5,879 nt of DNA from Escherichia coli (GTDB taxonomy: Bacteria; Pseudomonadota; Gammaproteobacteria; Enterobacterales; Enterobacteriaceae): the NCBI RefSeq assembly GCF_003334815.1, contig NZ_QOWO01000072.1; one strand, 5' to 3'. Position numbers and translations under genes: made by a program. The notes beneath the pieces were generated by a model. That model was given only the letters and a program-made list of their open reading frames with translations. It was not told where the DNA came from and ran no database searches. Below, piece by piece: positions 1-5,879 of this stretch (the first letter of the stretch is position 1; each line of letters begins with the position of its first letter).

Positions 1-40
1 TTCGTACTAATCGCTTCAATCCAAAGAACTTCACTTTTCC

Positions 41-77
41 TTAGCGTGTGTTATCGCAGAAATGCCCACGGAACCCC
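41..77. repeat. Left copy of an imperfect 37-bp inverted repeat (partner at 5803-5839)
   Basis: Hand alignment: reverse complement of 41-77 matches plus 5803-5839 at 34/37 positions. The repeat contains the last 8 codons and TAA stop (51-53) of the 51..248 ORF. Confidence 0.7.
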
Positions 78-248
78 GGTTTGGCGTTTCCCTGCCAATA
101 TTTGATAGCCAACCCAGAGGATATAAACGCTAATACCTGCACTTAGAAGAGATAACATATCTTGGCCTAATTGACTTTGAAGTGGTTTGGTCATCTCTTC
201 GATTTTACTAACAACTTCGCTATTAAACTTTTCAAAGAAACCAGACAT
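51..248 (-). CDS. 65-aa membrane ORF resembling the N-terminal segment of VirB6/TrbL-family proteins (possibly a truncated gene)
   Basis: ATG at 248 preceded by AGGTGA, 4 nt after the stop of the upstream lipoprotein gene. MSGFF... then one hydrophobic helix (LSLLSAGISVYILWVGYQIL) followed by AGKR, the usual start of VirB6-type proteins, but it stops at TAA 51-53 where canonical proteins continue for about 250 aa. Confidence 0.4.
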   Translation of the reverse strand: MSGFFEKFNSEVVSKIEEMTKPLQSQLGQDMLSLLSAGISVYILWVGYQILAGKRQTGVPWAFLR

Positions 249-252
249 GTTA

Positions 253-516
253 TCACCTGTTCAATCCATGTTGCTTATCATATTCAGCTGACTCAGCCTT
301 AAGTATTTCAAGCATAGGCCCATAGGTTCTACCAATAATTCCGGCAACTTTTTTAACATTTTGACAATTAACAGAGTCTTCCCCTGACTTTTTACACTCC
401 TTATATTTCTCCGTTGCTTCTTTGGGATGATTTAGCCACCAATCTGATGATTTTGTATCTTCACCACATGCGGAAAGAATAAAAATAGATATCAAGAGTG
501 TACAAATTTTTTTCAT
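253..516 (-). CDS. Small secreted lipoprotein (87 aa); position immediately upstream of a VirB6/TrbL-like ORF suggests a TrbK/entry-exclusion-like role
   Basis: N-terminal signal peptide MKKICTLLISIFILSAC with lipobox L-S-A-C; GAGGA Shine-Dalgarno 7 nt upstream of the ATG at 516; stop TGA at 253-255. Confidence 0.6.
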   Translation of the reverse strand: MKKICTLLISIFILSACGEDTKSSDWWLNHPKEATEKYKECKKSGEDSVNCQNVKKVAGIIGRTYGPMLEILKAESAEYDKQHGLNR

Positions 517-536
517 CTTTGATTCCTCGTATGGAC

Positions 537-578
537 ATTACAATTGCTGATGCAATCAGCAATTGTAATTTTTGTCAA
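537..578 (-). promoter_or_regulatory. Perfect palindrome (15-bp arms, 3-bp spacer) plus adjacent minus-strand TTGACA; candidate operator/promoter for the lipoprotein operon
   Basis: ATTACAATTGCTGAT-gca-ATCAGCAATTGTAAT at 537-569, 21 nt upstream of the ATG at 516. Minus-strand hexamer TTGACA at 578..573 immediately upstream. No clean -10 hexamer identified. Confidence 0.4.
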
Positions 579-617
579 CTAAAAAAAACACCTATTGCAT
601 TATGCTATTTTTTGCAA

Positions 618-902
618 TTAATCCGCTTCAAATCCAAAACGAATCTCTTTTATGTTCAAAAGCAATCTCAATAAGATCATCGGTCTTAACGATGAAGCTG
701 AAGCACAACTTAATTTAGCTCTTGCATTAAATAACTGCCCCTGAACTGTTCCCGGTGTTGTATTTCTAAAATAAGCTATTTCATCAATAGTAAATCCTAT
801 GCTGTATAAAATGGTCACGCTCTTTTCCGCATCGATTAATCCTTCATCGTCGTAAAAGATTTGATGAAGTTGAGAAATGCGTATAGCATCATGCTTAGTC
901 AT
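618..902 (-). CDS. Small helix-turn-helix DNA-binding protein (sigma-70 region-4 / KorA-like HTH)
   Basis: 94-aa ORF; AGAGG Shine-Dalgarno 6 nt upstream of the ATG at 902. Segment FTIDEIAYFRNTTPGTVQGQLFNARAKL fits the T-x-G-T-V HTH pattern. Lies 76 nt downstream of repA on the same strand. Confidence 0.5.
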   Translation of the reverse strand: MTKHDAIRISQLHQIFYDDEGLIDAEKSVTILYSIGFTIDEIAYFRNTTPGTVQGQLFNARAKLSCASASSLRPMILLRLLLNIKEIRFGFEAD

Positions 903-978
903 AATAACCTCTAGCCAGGTTGTTGTGATTAGCGGTTTGTCAGAGTTGCAACCTCTGGCAAATCGCGCCGATTAAATA

Positions 979-1728
979 TCAATTTTTTATAATCTTTGAT
1001 TGCTCATCTTTTTGAAACCAGAATTCAAGACGAACGACTTTTTTGCCTCTTTTTAATGGCTTCCACTGGATTATCCAATTATCTTTTTCGGTCAACTCTT
1101 TTACGGCAGGTTCTATCACCCTTTCTCTGAGTAATCCAAAGGTTTTTTTATAACTTTCAGGAGATTCCATTGCGTGATGAAAATCATCCAGCGATATAGA
1201 TAACCATCCGTTATTGTCTTTGTGGGTATTCATTTGCTCGAATAATTCAAGCAACCGCCATGAGTGAACAGAGCGCAGTCCGCAAGCCTGAGATAGCTGG
1301 TATTTAGTGAAATTTTCTTCCAGTTCGCATAGATAGGGGGTGACCTGTGGTGTGAAGCTCAAAACAACGTGCGCTTCACCTTCATTGTATTTATAAGCAC
1401 CTAACCATCTGATTTTCCAGACATCAACATCTGTTTCGCTTACTTCGTTTATTCTGAAGCTAATGTAGCGGTTAAAAAAATTGTCAGCAGCGATTTTTAA
1501 TTGTGAATACGCTTGTTTTAAAGGCATTCCAAATGTATTGGCGTATTCTTCAGCCGTGATTTTAATCGGGGTGTACTGTCCGCCCATTTTGGCTATTGCA
1601 GCAAAAATGATGCGTTTTTCAGCCAGTGACAGGCTTTGCGCTGCTCTCGTAATGGCATTGCTCATCACGATATTTTTCCCGCGCAGGTTCAAGGTCATGG
1701 TAATGGATTCAGTTTTTTTCCCTTTCAT
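979..1728 (-). CDS. repA: Rep_3-family iteron-binding replication initiator RepA
   Basis: Architecture matches pSC101/R6K-type initiators as remembered: NAITRAAQSLSLAEKRIIFAAIA (winged-helix 1), WKIRWLGAYKY...PYLCEL, SISLDDFHHAM...LEFWF. Preferred start is ATG 1728 (MKGKK, preceded by AGGCGGAGAG); the track ORF extends to 1782 and internal ATGs at 1698 and 1665 are alternatives. Stop TGA 979-981. Cognate iterons lie 130 bp upstream. Confidence 0.85.
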   Translation of the reverse strand: MKGKKTESITMTLNLRGKNIVMSNAITRAAQSLSLAEKRIIFAAIAKMGGQYTPIKITAEEYANTFGMPLKQAYSQLKIAADNFFNRYISFRINEVSETDVDVWKIRWLGAYKYNEGEAHVVLSFTPQVTPYLCELEENFTKYQLSQACGLRSVHSWRLLELFEQMNTHKDNNGWLSISLDDFHHAMESPESYKKTFGLLRERVIEPAVKELTEKDNWIIQWKPLKRGKKVVRLEFWFQKDEQSKIIKN

Positions 1729-1761
1729 CTCTCCGCCTAAATAGGTCAACTGGCACTTGGA

Positions 1762-1845
1762 AAAGTAACAGGTATCGGGCAACTGTAACGAAGATAAACG
1801 ATGTTATCGCACAAGTAAAGTAACATTGCTTGTTGCTGTTACTTT
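1762..1845 (-). promoter_or_regulatory. repA promoter/operator region with inverted iteron half-sites (candidate autoregulatory operator)
   Basis: Iteron core GTTACTTT occurs as AAAGTAAC at 1762-1769 and 1817-1824 and as GTTACTTT at 1838-1845. The pair 1817-1824 / 1838-1845 forms an inverted repeat with 13-bp spacer between the iterons and the repA start. Confidence 0.45.
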
Positions 1846-1849
1846 TGCC

Positions 1850-1858
1850 TGTGGATAT
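1850..1858. promoter_or_regulatory. DnaA box-like site (8/9 match)
   Basis: TGTGGATAT, reverse complement ATATCCACA versus consensus TTATCCACA; directly abuts the iteron array. Confidence 0.35.
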
Positions 1859-1860
1859 TG

Positions 1861-1944
1861 CCCGAAAAAAGTTACTTTTAACCCGAAAAAAGTTACTTTT
1901 AACCCGAAAAAAGTTACTTTTAACCCGAAAAAAGTTACTTTTAA
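1861..1944. repeat. Four tandem perfect 21-bp iterons (CCCGAAAAAAGTTACTTTTAA)
   Basis: Unit starts at 1861, 1882, 1903 and 1924; all four copies identical, contiguous, no spacers; located upstream of a Rep_3 initiator gene. Confidence 0.9.
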
Positions 1945-2040
1945 CGCTGTAACTTGATGATTCAAAAGAATTTCTAGCGACTAAAAAGGTTTTAAAAAAA
2001 AAGATAAAAAGGATTTAAAAAGGAATTTACCCCCAAAATC
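1945..2040. other. AT-rich, A-tract-phased region of the origin (candidate DNA unwinding/bending element)
   Basis: Strongly AT-rich by inspection; AAAAAGG recurs at 1983-1989, 2006-2012 and 2017-2023; flanked by iterons on one side and a perfect DnaA box on the other. Confidence 0.4.
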
Positions 2041-2049
2041 TGTGGATAA
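2041..2049. promoter_or_regulatory. DnaA box (perfect 9-mer)
   Basis: TGTGGATAA is the reverse complement of TTATCCACA; sits at the edge of the AT-rich origin region. Confidence 0.5.
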
Positions 2050-2156
2050 CTCTGCTTAAACCAAGAGGACAGATCACGTTACGTTAAGACAACAAACCTA
2101 ATAAACGACGCGCTCATTTTTTAACCGCTACGCGTAAGTGCTCAAATCAATACCTG

Positions 2157-2222
2157 CTCTCTTCCGCTTCCTCGCCCACTCGCTCACTAACGTTCGGTCG
2201 CTGGGGCTGCGGCGAGCGGTGC
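2157..2222. other. Segment resembling the ColE1/pBR322 primosome assembly (n'-type pas/ssi) region
   Basis: CTCTTCCGCTTCCTCGCCCACTCGCTCACTAACGTTCGGTCGCTGGGGCTGCGGCGAGCGGT is recognisably similar, from memory, to the pBR322 stretch CTCTTCCGCTTCCTCGCTCACTGACTCGCTGCGCTCGGTCGTTCGGCTGCGGCGAGCGGT. Lies about 110 bp from the oriV DnaA box in a GC-rich ORF-poor island. Confidence 0.3.
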
Positions 2223-2589
2223 CACCTCCCGCATGTTGTCGGTTATTCCGTTGCTGTACTGTTCGGAAATTCGTTCTGTGAGCCATCCAGAACACCAGAA
2301 CTCGATTTTCTGGTCCCGGTAATGGTATCCCACGTCTTAGCCCTTAAAACGCGCTCAGAAACTCTCTGAGGCGCTAAAATGCCAACAGATGCCCGTCAGG
2401 GCATGGAAGGTGCGAAAAACGCTTACAGAGGGTTTCAGGAGGCCAAGCGCGCCGATACCCCTAACCAGGGGCTTTCAGGTCGCTAAGAACCGCGTCAGCC
2501 CCCTGCAAAGCAAAAATTGCACGAAACAGGCAGCCACTCGGTTGGCAGGTGGTCGTAGACCGTCGATGTTGCAGCGATGATTGTATTAA

Positions 2590-2934
2590 TCATCTAATGC
2601 TATGGTTGGTGACTTCTTTTTCCAGAGCCTTATTAACAAAAGCATTCAACGATAAATCTTCTTCCATCGCCATTTCTGCTACCCGACGATGCAGTTCTGG
2701 ATCAAGCCTGACGTTAAACACGCCTTTAAACGGGATATCAGGTTCCTTTCCATCCTCCACACAAGACTGTAAATACAGATCAACCGATGTTTTAAACTCC
2801 TGTTCCAGTTCAGCTAATGTAGAAGCCTCATAAGTTACCAGGTCCCGAATAAACGCCAGTTTTCCATACAGGACATTATTTTCAAAATCGGGTTCAACTG
2901 TACCTAAATATCCTTTATATTTTAAATGTTTCAT
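2590..2934 (-). CDS. hicB: HicB-family antitoxin (N-terminal HicB fold plus C-terminal ribbon-helix-helix DNA-binding domain)
   Basis: 114 aa; C-terminal FNVRLDPELHRRVAEMAMEEDLSLNAFVNKALEKEV is a typical RHH segment of HicB antitoxins. Start ATG 2934 overlaps the hicA stop (ATGA at 2931-2934); stop TGA 2590-2592. Confidence 0.8.
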   Translation of the reverse strand: MKHLKYKGYLGTVEPDFENNVLYGKLAFIRDLVTYEASTLAELEQEFKTSVDLYLQSCVEDGKEPDIPFKGVFNVRLDPELHRRVAEMAMEEDLSLNAFVNKALEKEVTNHSIR

Positions 2935-3179
2935 AATAATCCGGCCTCTTTCAGATTCTGTTTAATCGCTTTCAGCGTACCACCTTTAATATAACTTTCC
3001 GGATGTGGGCGATGCATTAATATGGTGTGGTTGATATCAGCATTGAAAAACCGCACTCTTGACCCCTGCATTTCTTTTTTGACATATCCCAAAGAGGAAA
3101 ACAAAACGACCAGTTCATCCCATTCAAACGTTTTTTTGCTGTTTAAAAACTTCGCCAGTAGTTTATCTGTTTTTCCCAT
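2931..3179 (-). CDS. hicA: HicA-family toxin (mRNA interferase)
   Basis: 82 aa; GSRVRFFNADINHTILMHRPHPESYIKGGTLKAIKQNLKEAGLL resembles the E. coli HicA core (GSNH...PRHP...LRKAILKQLGL, remembered). GGGGAG Shine-Dalgarno 3 nt upstream of the ATG at 3179; toxin-first order typical of hicAB. Confidence 0.75.
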   Translation of the reverse strand: MGKTDKLLAKFLNSKKTFEWDELVVLFSSLGYVKKEMQGSRVRFFNADINHTILMHRPHPESYIKGGTLKAIKQNLKEAGLL

Positions 3180-3193
3180 ACGCTCCCCTTGTT

Positions 3194-3229
3194 TGTAACT
3201 AATTATAGTTACAGTGTTGTTTTTGTCAA
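3194..3229 (-). promoter_or_regulatory. Consensus sigma70 promoter for hicAB with overlapping palindromic operator
   Basis: Minus strand: -35 TTGACA (3229..3224), 16-bp spacer, -10 TATAAT (3207..3202), about 23 nt upstream of the hicA ATG. Palindrome TGTAACT-aattat-AGTTACA (3194-3213) overlaps the -10. Confidence 0.55.
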
Positions 3230-3320
3230 ACGTGCCCTCAATGGAACATTTGAGCAGAAACTAAAGCTTGGAGACTCCCAAAATTAGAGAGGAATTACTT
3301 AAAGGCTGCAAAGAACCAAT

Positions 3321-3368
3321 GCAGGATAGACAATCCGATGTCAAATGGTACCATTCGATATCGGATTG
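3321..3368 (-). other. Candidate oriT: near-perfect 38-bp palindrome followed on the minus strand by a TATCCTG|C nick-like motif
   Basis: CAATCCGAT-gtca-AATGGTACCATT-cgat-ATCGGATTG at 3331-3368. On the minus strand the motif TATCCTGC (3328..3321) follows 2 nt after the repeat and fits the MOB_P-type nick consensus YATCCTG|Y. Lies in the divergent intergenic region next to a MobC-like gene. Confidence 0.35.
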
Positions 3369-3419
3369 TCCAAAAACAGGGTTTTTGCCTGTGCCTGCCG
3401 CAGGCTCTATGGAGTGAAG

Positions 3420-3923
3420 ATGAAACAGATAAAATTCAGACTTAGTGGTGATGAGTTAAAACTTGCAGAACATAACGCGATTTCAAGTGGATTTTCCAGT
3501 ATCAATACATTTGCCAGACATAATGTGCTTAACATTGAAACTAAGCCTGTTAATATCCCAGTTAATAATGAACCAGCAAAGCTGGTATCAGTGCGCCTTT
3601 ACCCTCATGAAATAGAACTTGTTAAACGTAATGCTGCCCTTCACGGCATGAGCATGAGCAGAGAAATTGCTATTCGTGTGCGTCAGTCTTTGTTAAAGAA
3701 TGAAGTCTGTCTTTACCCTGATGAAGTTAAGGAACTTAAAAAACTATCAACTGCTGTAGATCGTGTTGGTCGCAACATTCATTTTATCATAAAAGGTGAA
3801 AGATTCTGCACGGTTAACGATCCAGATTTCAGAAAAGACGTTATTGAAGTGATTGAACTGTGTAAGCAAATTGATTCAAAACTTGAAACGTTAACCAAGA
3901 GTGTTGTTAACAGATTTGGTTAA
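3420..3923 (+). CDS. MobC-like relaxosome accessory protein (tandem ribbon-helix-helix segments)
   Basis: 167 aa from ATG 3420, with GGAG 7 nt upstream; the track ORF start at 3345 lies inside the palindrome and is rejected. Two RHH-like segments (IKFRLSGDELKLAEHNAISSGF; KLVSVRLYPHEIELVKRNAALHGMSMSREIAIRV) and C-terminal LKKLSTAVDRVGRNIHFIIKG resembling the MobC L..L...R.G.N motif. Stop TAA 3921-3923. Confidence 0.45.
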   Translation: MKQIKFRLSGDELKLAEHNAISSGFSSINTFARHNVLNIETKPVNIPVNNEPAKLVSVRLYPHEIELVKRNAALHGMSMSREIAIRVRQSLLKNEVCLYPDEVKELKKLSTAVDRVGRNIHFIIKGERFCTVNDPDFRKDVIEVIELCKQIDSKLETLTKSVVNRFG

Positions 3924-3929
3924 AATCAA

Positions 3930-3948
3930 GGCCATCAAATAGATGGCC
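3930..3948 (-). terminator. Hairpin between convergent genes; likely intrinsic terminator for the minus-strand VirB5-like operon
   Basis: GGCCATC-aaata-GATGGCC (7-bp stem, 5-nt loop). On the minus strand it is followed by TTGATTTTA (U-rich); on the plus strand the downstream tract is not U-rich. Confidence 0.4.
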
Positions 3949-3955
3949 CTAGCTG

Positions 3956-4258
3956 TTATCTCATCGTAAATCGCATTACGATTAATAACAGAAGTAAAAT
4001 ACAAAACAGCTTCAACGTAAAAAGGAGTCTTTCTTTTATACCACCGCTGGGAACAAACCTCTTTTCAATTCTATCAGTGATAAATTGCAATGTGCCATAA
4101 TACATAAAAGCATTAACCAGCTTTAACGTAAGCTCCATACTTAAAACAATAACTATTATTGGTAGAGATATTAACAGTGGCGGCGGTGTAGAACCGGTAC
4201 TATTCAATCTAGACCAATGATTATCTACCCATTCTTTTAGCTTATTTAGCTTTATCAT
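3956..4258 (-). CDS. Small integral membrane protein (100 aa, two hydrophobic helices); entry-exclusion-like by position after the VirB5-like gene
   Basis: ATG at 4258 lies 1 nt after the VirB5-like stop (TGAtATG); the track ORF's longer N-terminus overlaps the upstream gene. Hydrophobic stretches PLLISLPIIVIVLSMELTL and LLFTLKLFCILLLLLIVMRF. No family recognised. Confidence 0.45.
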   Translation of the reverse strand: MIKLNKLKEWVDNHWSRLNSTGSTPPPLLISLPIIVIVLSMELTLKLVNAFMYYGTLQFITDRIEKRFVPSGGIKERLLFTLKLFCILLLLLIVMRFTMR

Positions 4259-4259
4259 A

Positions 4260-4973
4260 TCATTCGAAACTCGGTATTTTGGCATTTTTCTGACGTAAAC
4301 GATACTCTGCATACTTTTGTTCTTTCAACATTTCCGCATCAGCCCTGTTTTTACTATCCCATACATCATACTGCATTTTAATTGCCTGTATTTTTAACGA
4401 CTGAGCCTGTAATGCGTTAGCTAAATCCTGGGATTCCTTCATATCCTTTGAAGACTCAATTCGGCTACTTAAACTCTGAATCTGAGACATTGCACTTGAT
4501 AGCTGCTTATTTATCTCATTTCCCTGTTCAATGCTGGCGGCCGTTGAAACTATTCTGGCCTTACAAAGGTTATCAGAACTTTCAATGCCTGTATTACACA
4601 TATCAAACGCTCCATACTTACTGAACAGATTTTTAGCCTGGCTGCTTAATGCACCTTCGGGATTACTGGTAAAATCAGAAATATAACTGTTCCCCTGCTT
4701 ATAAATGTTTGCCAACTCTGATTGCAGGTTACTTAGTTCATTTGTGAATGCCGCAATATTCCTTATACCTGTTGCCGTGGCTAACTGGTCTTTATATGCC
4801 TGAATCTGACTTTGATAATGCCGCGCTGTTTCAGACCATTGTTTGAGTCGTTCTGTCCATCTTGTGGCTTCAATGGCCCATTCCGGACTGGCATCAATAG
4901 CAACCGGAATACCTGCGACAGAACCAAATGAAAATAAGCACAAAAGTACTGAAAAAATTAGTTTTTTGTTCAT
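4260..4973 (-). CDS. VirB5/TrbJ-family type IV secretion minor pilus protein
   Basis: 237 aa; signal peptide MNKKLIFSVLLCLFSFGSVAG, then GIPVAID and a Gln-rich coiled-coil stretch (QSQIQAYKDQLATATGIR) as in VirB5/TrbJ proteins. Strong GAGGAG Shine-Dalgarno; start overlaps the upstream gene's stop (ATGA at 4970-4973). Confidence 0.7.
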   Translation of the reverse strand: MNKKLIFSVLLCLFSFGSVAGIPVAIDASPEWAIEATRWTERLKQWSETARHYQSQIQAYKDQLATATGIRNIAAFTNELSNLQSELANIYKQGNSYISDFTSNPEGALSSQAKNLFSKYGAFDMCNTGIESSDNLCKARIVSTAASIEQGNEINKQLSSAMSQIQSLSSRIESSKDMKESQDLANALQAQSLKIQAIKMQYDVWDSKNRADAEMLKEQKYAEYRLRQKNAKIPSFE

Positions 4974-5710
4974 GCTGAACTCCTCGCACGTGCTTTTTCC
5001 AGGGATGCTCGTCTTCTTGCTTCCATTCCCAATGCGCCTGTTGAAGCCCGTTTCTGCTCCACTTTTTCACCTGCCCATTCGGCGGCTGTTTGCGTTCCCC
5101 GTTTCATTTGGTTTCTCGTTTTCTCTACGGCCATCCCAGCAGCCCCAATCCCTAAAAGAGCCATTCCCTGAAGAGTACCTTCGACACCTGCACCAGCAAG
5201 CTGCTGCGCGAAACTCGATGATTTCCAGACAAAGACAGCAATCAGAACTCCAATTACAAATGCCATTGCGCCCATTGTTAAAATATTTGTTGAGTTAGCA
5301 TCTCTCGATATCTGACTAAGCATATCAGTTTGAAACTCAGTACCAATTTTGACGAGAACTCCTGCAAAAATAACAGTAAATACACTAGAAAATAATATAC
5401 CAAGCCAGTTATTAAACATTACTCTGGTGAATCCAAACATATGACAACCGATAAATATCGGAGCTACAAGAATAGCTAACTGCATTGTTACATCGGCAAG
5501 CATGTAAATAACAGCCGCTACAGACATAATCAGGATGCTTCCTCCCCAAACCAACATTGAACCGATCCCACCCTCAACTGACACATATTTGGATTGATCC
5601 ATAGCATAAACTTTGTCTGCCAAAAGCTGAGTTGTACTCCACATGGTATCTAGCGTTGCCCATACAGGTTTACCAAGGAACCCATCCTTCATAGATTTAA
5701 TAGCATCCAT
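4970..5710 (-). CDS. VirB6/TrbL-family polytopic inner-membrane protein, lacking the canonical N-terminal segment (possibly N-terminally truncated)
   Basis: 246 aa with 4-5 hydrophobic helices and a charged C-terminal tail. APIFIGCHMFGFTRVMFNNWLGILF matches the conserved VirB6 P-x-F-I...TR..F..W block (remembered from Brucella/Agrobacterium VirB6). The frame is open upstream to TGA 5861-5863 with no ATG/GTG/TTG before ATG 5710, and the ribosome-binding site is weak. Confidence 0.7.
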   Translation of the reverse strand: MDAIKSMKDGFLGKPVWATLDTMWSTTQLLADKVYAMDQSKYVSVEGGIGSMLVWGGSILIMSVAAVIYMLADVTMQLAILVAPIFIGCHMFGFTRVMFNNWLGILFSSVFTVIFAGVLVKIGTEFQTDMLSQISRDANSTNILTMGAMAFVIGVLIAVFVWKSSSFAQQLAGAGVEGTLQGMALLGIGAAGMAVEKTRNQMKRGTQTAAEWAGEKVEQKRASTGALGMEARRRASLEKARARSSA

Positions 5711-5802
5711 TGCTGCCGTCAGATAGCCATCAGCATTGCTTACGAATGTTAAAATAATGGCAAATTTTGATAGGTCCCAAACGAGATCTTGTAATGGGGT
5801 TT

Positions 5803-5839
5803 GGGGCTCCGTGGGAATTTCTGCGATAACACCCGCTAA
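5803..5839. repeat. Right copy of the imperfect 37-bp inverted repeat (partner at 41-77); an inverted, degenerate copy of the 3' end of the 51..248 ORF
   Basis: Plus 5758-5829 translates to WQILIGPKRDLVMGFGAPWEFLR-stop, versus YQILAGKRQTGVPWAFLR-stop at the C-terminus of the 51..248 ORF (encoded on the opposite strand). Nucleotide identity is 34/37 in the core. Confidence 0.7.
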
Positions 5840-5849
5840 GCGATTTCTC

Positions 5850-5879
5850 CCTGACGGAAATCACTTGTTTTCCGTCAGG
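5850..5879. repeat. Perfect hairpin/inverted repeat at the right window edge (11-bp stem, 8-nt loop)
   Basis: CCTGACGGAAA-tcacttgt-TTTCCGTCAGG; the stem contains the in-frame TGA (5861-5863) that closes the upstream extension of the VirB6-like reading frame. Downstream context is beyond the window. Confidence 0.5.

Follow-up and report, generated by a model that had tools for sequence, protein, structure and literature searches.

A relaxosome accessory protein of the IncX4 type, TaxA, is encoded at positions 3420-3923 of a 5,879-nucleotide stretch of Escherichia coli DNA (contig NZ_QOWO01000072.1 of assembly GCF_003334815.1; this whole stretch is called the window below). The gene stands directly behind a predicted IncX4-type origin of transfer (oriT), on a small plasmid that has no relaxase of its own. 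The reading that we favor, with a probability of about three in four, is that this plasmid is a relaxase-less hitcher, which borrows the relaxase and the mating channel of a co-resident IncX4 plasmid. An intact taxA, a conserved oriT, and a natural IncX4 cointegrate joined at the nic core together fit a plasmid that is mobilized in trans. With taxA intact and under selection, the degenerate conjugation system proposed in a preliminary description of this stretch is not the best reading of the same data. The coordinates of all features are collected in Table 1.

The identity of the gene product is clear from profile and sequence comparison. The NCBIfam equivalog model NF041451 ("DNA distortion polypeptide 1," DDP1) matches TaxA with 232.1 bits against a curated cutoff of 150 (E 3.8e-69), over residues 1-165 of the protein and positions 1-169 of the model. 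By tblastn, its identity is 94.6% to the TaxA annotated on 33-kb mcr-1-type IncX4 plasmids and about 90% to the ddp1 product of a second IncX4 lineage, and the NCBI annotation pipeline PGAP labels the same gene ddp1 or taxA in related records. The two names denote one gene, whose product is the auxiliary protein of the relaxase TaxC (PMC3332091). TaxC is a MOBP relaxase, and the relaxases of IncX4 plasmids carry MOBP typing. In a transposon screen of the IncX4 plasmid pHNSHP23, taxA scored as essential for conjugation (PMC8725589); that nicking at oriT and transfer need TaxA alongside TaxC is known only from R6K and this plasmid. The preliminary description had called the gene MobC-like; it was right about a relaxosome accessory protein with ribbon-helix-helix (RHH)-like segments, but the family is TaxA/DDP1, and the Pfam MobC model (PF05713) has no match to TaxA at E<=10 nor to any of 24 homologs at E<=0.1. 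Profile searches led to NF041451 and not to a partition or generic regulator family. TaxA is a member of a known, already annotated family, and the gene itself is ordinary. A longer frame of 192 amino acids from position 3345 was rejected; it would start within the oriT palindrome and is unsupported by any homolog alignment, and the alignment of the 24 homologs starts at MKQ.

The region 3317-3408, between hicA and taxA, is predicted to be an IncX4-type oriT by its position, its motif, its conservation, and the precedent of R6K and other IncX plasmids. Nick sites of MOBP relaxases follow the consensus (C/T)ATCCTG(C/T) with a 5'-proximal inverted repeat (PMC3772185). The motif in the window fits this consensus and has an inverted repeat immediately 5' on the nicked strand; the predicted nick falls between positions 3322 and 3321 of the minus strand (TATCCTG|C, where the bar marks the nick). 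The first part of the oriT reads CAATGCAGGATAG and its minus strand CTATCCTG|CATTG, and an oligonucleotide or site spanning the predicted nick is GGATTGTCTATCCTGCATTGG. The sequence TATCCTGC is present once in the window. The core ATGCAGGATAG was found at every oriT-like site in the loci compared (11 distinct sites), among them the one ahead of taxA/ddp1 in all seven types of plasmid compared.

Next to the core lies a near-perfect palindrome, which ends 50 nucleotides ahead of the taxA start codon and is presumed to be the oriT inverted repeat to which the accessory protein binds. Core and palindrome precede taxA/ddp1 in the window plasmid and its relative from enterotoxigenic E. coli (ETEC), in two IncX4 lineages, and in an IncX3 plasmid, and likewise precede ddp1 in a 2920-bp RepL plasmid, a 4718-nucleotide Rep_3 contig, and one more metagenomic contig. 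The arms of the repeat differ between these plasmids in five variants (CCGAT/ATCGG, CATGG/CCATG, CAACTA/TAGTTG, CACAACAC/GTGTTGTG, and GGGCAAACG/CGTTTGCCC), yet the outer 7-11 bp pair perfectly throughout, a pattern of covariation. The conserved GC-rich block beyond the palindrome has invariant columns in a four-way alignment with IncX4 and 4237-bp plasmids; it is present at IncX4-type sites and absent from IncX3-type sites and from one further locus (L015), and it could be another binding site of the relaxosome or part of the promoter/operator of taxA. Over 99 nucleotides the oriT of the window is 90.9% identical to both copies in mcr-1 IncX4 plasmids, where the two inverted copies adjoin taxA and the replication-initiator gene; these IncX4 sites are themselves assigned from motif, position, and IncX precedent. 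Their layout matches that of conjugative IncX plasmids, which carry two oriTs within long inverted repeats (PMC3402527). An apparent second BLAST match in the window was the palindrome aligned with its own reverse complement, and the small plasmid has a single oriT.

Window positions 78-5802 are collinear, at essentially 100% identity, with the entire 5718-bp Salmonella Typhimurium record LR792480.1, and are 98.7% identical to NZ_CP122591.1, a circular E. coli plasmid of 5720 bp; a second 5720-bp E. coli plasmid shares the same replication region. The 5.7-kb plasmid occurs free and circular in three E. coli genomes and one Salmonella record. By this collinearity, positions 78-5802 are a complete 5.7-kb circular plasmid and not a fragment of a large conjugative plasmid. 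That no relaxase is encoded in the window, as had been stated before, was borne out: relaxase models had no match among the ten largest open reading frames (ORFs) of the window, and IncX4 TaxC and the coupling protein TaxB gave no tblastn match at E<=0.1 in the window or in the circularized plasmid. Since the circle is complete and holds no remnant of TaxC or TaxB, the relaxase is absent from this replicon on the free plasmids. The earlier alternative of a relaxase outside the window or lost is thereby narrowed; "outside" does not hold for free plasmids that are complete circles, and absence from the replicon does.

The surroundings of the gene are as first described, with hicAB on one side and on the other a convergent set of virB6-like, virB5-like, and ORF118 genes on the minus strand. 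Unlike in IncX plasmids, taxA does not form an operon with a cognate taxC. In IncX4 plasmids the start codon of taxC lies within a few bases of the taxA stop; the small plasmids diverge at this point, and a stem-loop, followed by the convergent operon, holds the position of the taxC start. From its sequence the stem-loop is likely a terminator between taxA and the convergent operon, although a simple terminator scan did not pick it up.

It may still be asked whether a relaxase lies off the window on the same molecule, the 5.7-kb plasmid being embedded in a larger replicon between two Tn3-family copies as a replicative-transposition cointegrate. The outward-facing Tn3-family repeats at the window ends and the 5-bp target duplication GGTTT (78-82 and 5798-5802, inside the virB6-like gene) fit a simple insertion and a two-copy cointegrate alike, and an IncX4 fusion of the small plasmid does exist, formed by another route. 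However, the same 5.7 kb is known as the free circles listed above, and an off-window relaxase would not be the cognate neighbor of taxA, since the stem-loop and the convergent operon occupy the taxC position. We regard this explanation as very unlikely.

An indication that the oriT has been used comes from the IncX4 fusion just mentioned. The replication region of the small plasmid is present at 100% identity within pOkiPb01695_3 (NZ_AP042573.1; 38,788 bp), which consists of a complete IncX4 plasmid and the whole small plasmid between two direct taxA/oriT copies (27688-34020). In a base-by-base comparison, the copy adjoining taxC has the IncX4-type taxA and repeat and, past the core, the hicA flank of the small plasmid; in the other copy, taxA and the repeat are identical to those of the window, and the IncX4 flank follows past the core. 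Both crossovers fall inside the 19 bp common to the parents (CAATGCAGGATAGACAATC, window 3317-3335), and not in the near-identical 3' part of taxA (about 300 bp), where homologous recombination would be likelier. One junction has a 32-bp tandem duplication, the unit of which is bounded by CCTG| on the nicked strand. Recombination between two oriTs catalyzed by the relaxase occurs for other relaxases, e.g., TrwC of R388. The sequence of the junctions suggests the product expected if a relaxase began at one oriT and ended at the other, and the cointegrate as a whole suggests that an IncX4 relaxase has used the oriT of the small plasmid in cells.

The taxA gene is intact and, as judged from dN/dS (the ratio of nonsynonymous to synonymous substitution rates) of 0.17-0.21 against IncX4 taxA genes, is under purifying selection. 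Of the nine amino acid differences from the mcr-type TaxA, eight fall in residues 3-33. These data bear on the explanation that recombination brought taxA and oriT, along with hicAB, out of an IncX4 plasmid, and that they now persist as a decaying, functionless remnant of a degenerate conjugation module. The plasmid is indeed a mosaic. Its hicAB pair is inverted with respect to that of IncX4, its virB6-like and virB5-like genes stand in a non-canonical order, its VirB6, PixR-like, and Eex proteins are just 43-47% identical to those of IncX4, and the relaxase and most secretion genes are missing. Decay is hard to reconcile with a taxA frame that is intact in every small plasmid examined and has a dN/dS of about 0.2, with an oriT that has retained nearly every base and a perfect outer stem of 11 bp, or with a cointegrate joined at the nic core; moreover, the combination of taxA and oriT is seen again on three or more small replicons that are unrelated. 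A functionless remnant is very unlikely.

Relaxase-less ddp1 with oriT is also present on a complete 2920-bp plasmid (NZ_CP041119.1) and the 4718-nucleotide contig. In one plasmid database, 732 records contain the oriT block; 449 of these plasmids are typed conjugative, 17 mobilizable, and 266 non-mobilizable. The non-mobilizable carriers include cryptic plasmids of 1.5, 2.1, and 4.2 kb, and 22 records that bear ddp1 are typed non-mobilizable. The 4237-bp RepL plasmids (e.g., NZ_LR890339.1) are widespread and, in common with the window, have virB6-like, eex, and pixR-like genes. They lack taxA, and their oriT is present in two inverted copies, at 3694-3795 (plus strand) and 2343-2432 (minus strand) of NZ_LR890339.1. 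One of the two repeats of that plasmid is of the mcr-1-type IncX4 and the other of the pF190-type IncX4 lineage. The 2920-bp plasmid, which has a RepL replicon, likewise has oriT-like sites of different IncX types, at 2033 (plus strand) and 2717 (minus strand); an IncX4-like site lies upstream of ddp1 and the other site has the IncX3-type arms GGGCAAACG/CGTTTGCCC. Among smaller plasmids typed non-mobilizable, those of 1.5 kb (e.g., NC_017629.1, 1564 bp) have the full oriT block, and those of 2.1 kb from E. coli, Shigella, and Klebsiella match over the core and half of the palindrome.

Exchange within taxA is apparent from the 5720-bp ETEC plasmid (L001; 98.7% identical overall). There, a divergent allele with 29 amino acid differences takes the place of the first 73 taxA codons, together with the ribosome-binding region (window 3420-3640 aligned with L001 3172-3392), whereas codons 74-167 and the oriT repeat are identical to those of the window. 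In this comparison the N-terminal RHH-like unit behaves as an exchangeable module. Co-evolution of the first RHH-like unit with the arms of the repeat was considered and rejected; because the same repeat occurs with a different 73-residue N-terminal allele, the unit does not track the repeat.

The swap also enters into another explanation, that TaxA serves chiefly the maintenance of its own plasmid or acts against the helper, as an RHH repressor or autoregulator, as a DNA distorter that assists replication, or as a decoy by which the helper's TaxC is titrated or redirected (fertility interference). In the first descriptions of DDP proteins, these distort the R6K replication origins alpha and beta, and the RHH-like units resemble repressors such as Arc and the antitoxin families. 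The N-terminal 73 codons have been replaced over an unchanged repeat, so this domain may have another partner, and, as the oriT-only 4237-bp relatives indicate, a plasmid can carry the site with no taxA of its own. A promoter-like match for taxA lies at 3327-3354, within the palindrome, but it is weak and no better than the shuffled background. Replication of the small plasmid is of the Rep_3/iteron type, with a Rep_3-type initiator gene at 979-1782 (minus strand) and the origin about 1.5 kb away from taxA, and the distortion sites of R6K coincide with the oriTs, which lie in the long inverted repeats (PMC3332091, PMC3402527). In proteins of this sort a function in the relaxosome commonly goes together with autoregulation, which makes the present reading an addition more than an alternative. 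A function of TaxA chiefly in maintenance or interference is judged unlikely.

Several points weigh against mobilization by an IncX4 helper. An experimental mapping of the IncX4 oriT was not found in the literature searched, and the mobilization itself, the binding of TaxA, and the exact position of the nick are deduced from sequence and from analogy. A rare homologous exchange within the 19 identical bp, or a faulty assembly, could also account for the cointegrate, although neither is the simplest reading. The 4237-bp relatives carry oriT without taxA, and a resident taxA is thus not obviously required. MOB-suite types the plasmid as non-mobilizable; this typing follows from the absence of a relaxase and is not a test of mobility. 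In ETEC6335, the host of a 5720-bp relative, the five plasmids inspected are of 136, 5.8, 5.7, 121, and 96 kb; as none has the size of an IncX4 plasmid, the relative persists there without an obvious helper. Finally, the Tn3-family element at the window ends hides the sequence beyond on the window's own molecule.

If the plasmid is indeed a hitcher, its TaxA would bind the inverted repeat of oriT and distort the DNA, and TaxC, acting in trans from a conjugative IncX4 plasmid in the same cell, would nick the minus strand at TATCCTG|C (3322|3321). The TaxB protein and PilX channel of the helper would then export the strand; of the genes on either side of oriT, hicAB would be the first to reach the recipient and taxA the last. 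That relaxase-less IncX derivatives might use TaxC in trans has been suggested (PMC3402527).

The arrangement can be compared with known systems. The TaxA/DDP1 proteins of IncX plasmids (R6K, pOLA52, and mcr-1 IncX4 plasmids such as pHNSHP23) are like TaxA of the window in family, in their length of 167 amino acids, and in their place directly downstream of oriT; on those plasmids taxC follows taxA within a few bases, in contrast to the stem-loop and convergent operon found here. The plasmids pCERC7, NTP16, and pU302S have an R64-like oriT and nikA, without nikB, and depend on plasmids of the I-complex (PMC9282650, PMC11389934). These NikA-only plasmids and the window plasmid alike combine an oriT related to that of a conjugative plasmid with an RHH or RHH-like accessory protein and no relaxase. 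They differ in the helper, which would be an IncX4 plasmid with the MOBP relaxase TaxC in place of an I-complex plasmid with NikB, and in the accessory protein, as TaxA has 167 amino acids, two RHH-like units, and a helical C-terminal domain. Mobilization has been reported for the NikA-only group, whereas for the window plasmid it is inferred from sequence. The plasmid pBuzz, going by a title cited in PMC11389934, has two inversely oriented oriTs. The 4237-bp relatives resemble pBuzz and the conjugative IncX plasmids in this respect, in contrast to the single oriT with taxA of the window plasmid. Small plasmids with taxA only or with an IncX4 oriT were not found described in the literature searched, and a report that mentions small untyped plasmids is limited to their PixR-like genes (PMC8725589). 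The kind of element is thus already known, and this relaxase-less hitcher appears to be an undescribed member of it in that literature.

Among the major carriers of mcr-1, a gene for colistin resistance, are the IncX4 plasmids. If the IncX4 oriT works in small plasmids typed non-mobilizable, some of which have a TaxA of their own, typing based on relaxases understates which plasmids can move alongside IncX4, and the cointegrate points to a way in which IncX4 plasmids may take up small plasmids along with their cargo. A further-reaching proposal, possible but doubtful, is that the small plasmid is an active manipulator of IncX4 helpers, within a large and hitherto unrecognized guild of IncX-dependent hitchers among the enterobacterial plasmids that are typed non-mobilizable. 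It would contribute its own TaxA allele; its PixR-like activator could switch on the pilX transfer operon of the helper; and its own entry-exclusion, VirB5-like, and VirB6-like proteins could alter the mating channel. Recombination between oriTs mediated by TaxC would fuse the small plasmid reversibly to helpers, as in pOkiPb01695_3. The guild would also include the 1.5-, 2.1-, 2.9-, and 4.2-kb plasmids with the same nic core, some of which have two oriTs matched to different IncX lineages.

TaxA itself probably consists of two RHH-like units, at about residues 2-41 and 54-94, followed by a C-terminal domain of two helices that bears G117-R118-N119. The only Pfam matches were weak ones to Arc (PF03869; E 0.003, residues 62-94) and to the NikA-like family (PF21983; E 0.0039 for residues 54-81 and E 0.037 for residues 2-41). 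Among the 24 homologs, NikA-like matches were obtained for 16 at E<=0.1 and for none at E<=0.001, and PF21983 is a precomputed annotation of most homologs. The L..L...R.G.N motif singled out in the preliminary description is real and conserved; it reads L106..L109.....R115.G117.N119 in TaxA, and G117, R118, and N119 are invariant across the 24 homologs. In the AlphaFold2 monomer, a model of moderate quality (mean predicted local distance difference test score 71.5; predicted template modeling score 0.33), helices span residues 10-22, 28-37, 62-75, 79-92, 100-124, and 135-165. Two pairs of successive helices are among them (10-22/28-37 and 62-75/79-92), and ahead of each pair, where a strand is expected, the chain is unstructured. 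The model is compatible with two RHH units and a helical domain, yet contains no sheet. An assignment based on structure was abandoned, as a Foldseek search against the PDB gave just coiled-coil and helical-hairpin matches (E>0.6) and did not recover PcfF.

PcfF of pCF10 has an N-terminal RHH followed by a helical domain. It was the best match of the family profile among PDB sequences (6QEQ), although a weak one (E 0.046), and the alignment places TaxA residues 103-160, including K..L.T.....GxN with G117-R118-N119, on PcfF residues 55-113; the RHH-like unit is duplicated in TaxA in comparison with PcfF. RP4 TraJ and VirD1 of the Ti plasmid serve as accessory proteins to MOBP relaxases, whose cut is made at ATCCTG|. 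The corresponding NCBIfam models gave sub-threshold matches to TaxA (VirD1, E 0.01, residues 51-126, 15.8 against 173 bits; TraJ, E 0.04, residues 55-163, 14.3 against 134 bits), and by these matches, with scores far below the family cutoffs, homology of TaxA with TraJ and VirD1 is plausible.

Table 1. Features of the window, in order of position (a bar within a sequence marks the predicted nick; aa, amino acids).
Feature	Position	Strand	Remarks
Tn3-family 38-bp terminal inverted repeat, outward-facing	40-77	.	pairs with 5803-5840; from self-BLAST and comparison with the 5718-bp plasmid
virB6-like gene	78-248 + 4970-5802	-	47% identity to IncX4; interrupted by Tn3-family insertion; one 332-aa ORF in uninterrupted relatives
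EexN lipoprotein gene	253-516		Eex 43% identical to IncX4 counterpart
pixR-like ORF, 94 aa	618-902	-	44% identical to PixR
hicB	2590-2934	-	toxin-antitoxin pair with hicA
hicA	2931-3179	-	toxin-antitoxin pair with hicB; divergent from taxA
predicted oriT nic core	3317-3335	-	19 bp; plus strand CAATGCAGGATAGACAATC; minus strand ..GTCTATCCTG|CATTG
42-bp near-perfect palindrome	3329-3370	.	arms GACAATCCGATGTCAAATGGT / ACCATTCGATATCGGATTGTC; 90% complementary; self-BLAST E 6e-11
conserved GC-rich oriT-distal block, CAAAAAC-N3-GTTTTTGCCTGTGCCTGCCGCAGGCTCT	3371-3408	.	7-bp inverted repeat 3371-3377 / 3381-3387
Shine-Dalgarno GGAG	3411-3414	+	5 nucleotides before taxA ATG; read from sequence
taxA (= ddp1)	3420-3923	+	167 aa; ATG 3420, TAA 3921-3923; IncX4-type relaxosome accessory protein
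stem-loop GGCCATC-aaata-GATGGCC	3930-3948	.	7 nucleotides past taxA stop; T-rich run next on minus strand
118-aa membrane-like ORF (ORF118)	3956-4312	-	in set convergent with taxA
virB5-like gene	4260-4973	-	82% identity to IncX4
second Tn3-family 38-bp inverted repeat	5803-5840	.	GGGGCTCCGTGGGAATTTCTGCGATAACACCCGCTAAG

HicA and HicB are 98-99% identical to the IncX4 pair (tblastn), and the pair is inverted relative to taxA here; a 12/12 promoter match for the hicAB region runs from 3229 to 3202 on the minus strand. The order virB6 to virB5 is the reverse of that in the canonical operon. The fragmentation of VirB6 noted earlier has two causes, in that the window opens the circular plasmid within this gene and that the gene carries the Tn3-family insertion, which marks the limits of the plasmid in the window. 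The window ends, 1-77 and 5803-5879, are each exactly 77 nucleotides and resemble an assembly-graph overlap with a repeat contig. The Tn3-family repeat has the form GGGG...CGCTAAG; the same end is found in 145 plasmids, and in pO145-13516 a resolvase-like frame then follows. Just upstream of the Rep_3 initiator gene, at 1804-1965, the peptide KVTFFGL is repeated three to four times in tandem in six-frame translations; this pattern indicates direct DNA repeats of about 21 nucleotides, consistent with an iteron origin. The sole Rfam match, to the SymR antitoxin RNA at 897-969 (plus strand), is sub-threshold (44.2 bits against a gathering score of 61; E 4e-6) and unrelated to the findings on taxA and oriT; its position is antisense to the pixR-like gene, over the 5' end and the region upstream. 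PixR is a LuxR-type activator of the pilX transfer operon of IncX4 plasmids, and a small plasmid with a pixR-like gene could influence the transfer genes of its helper.

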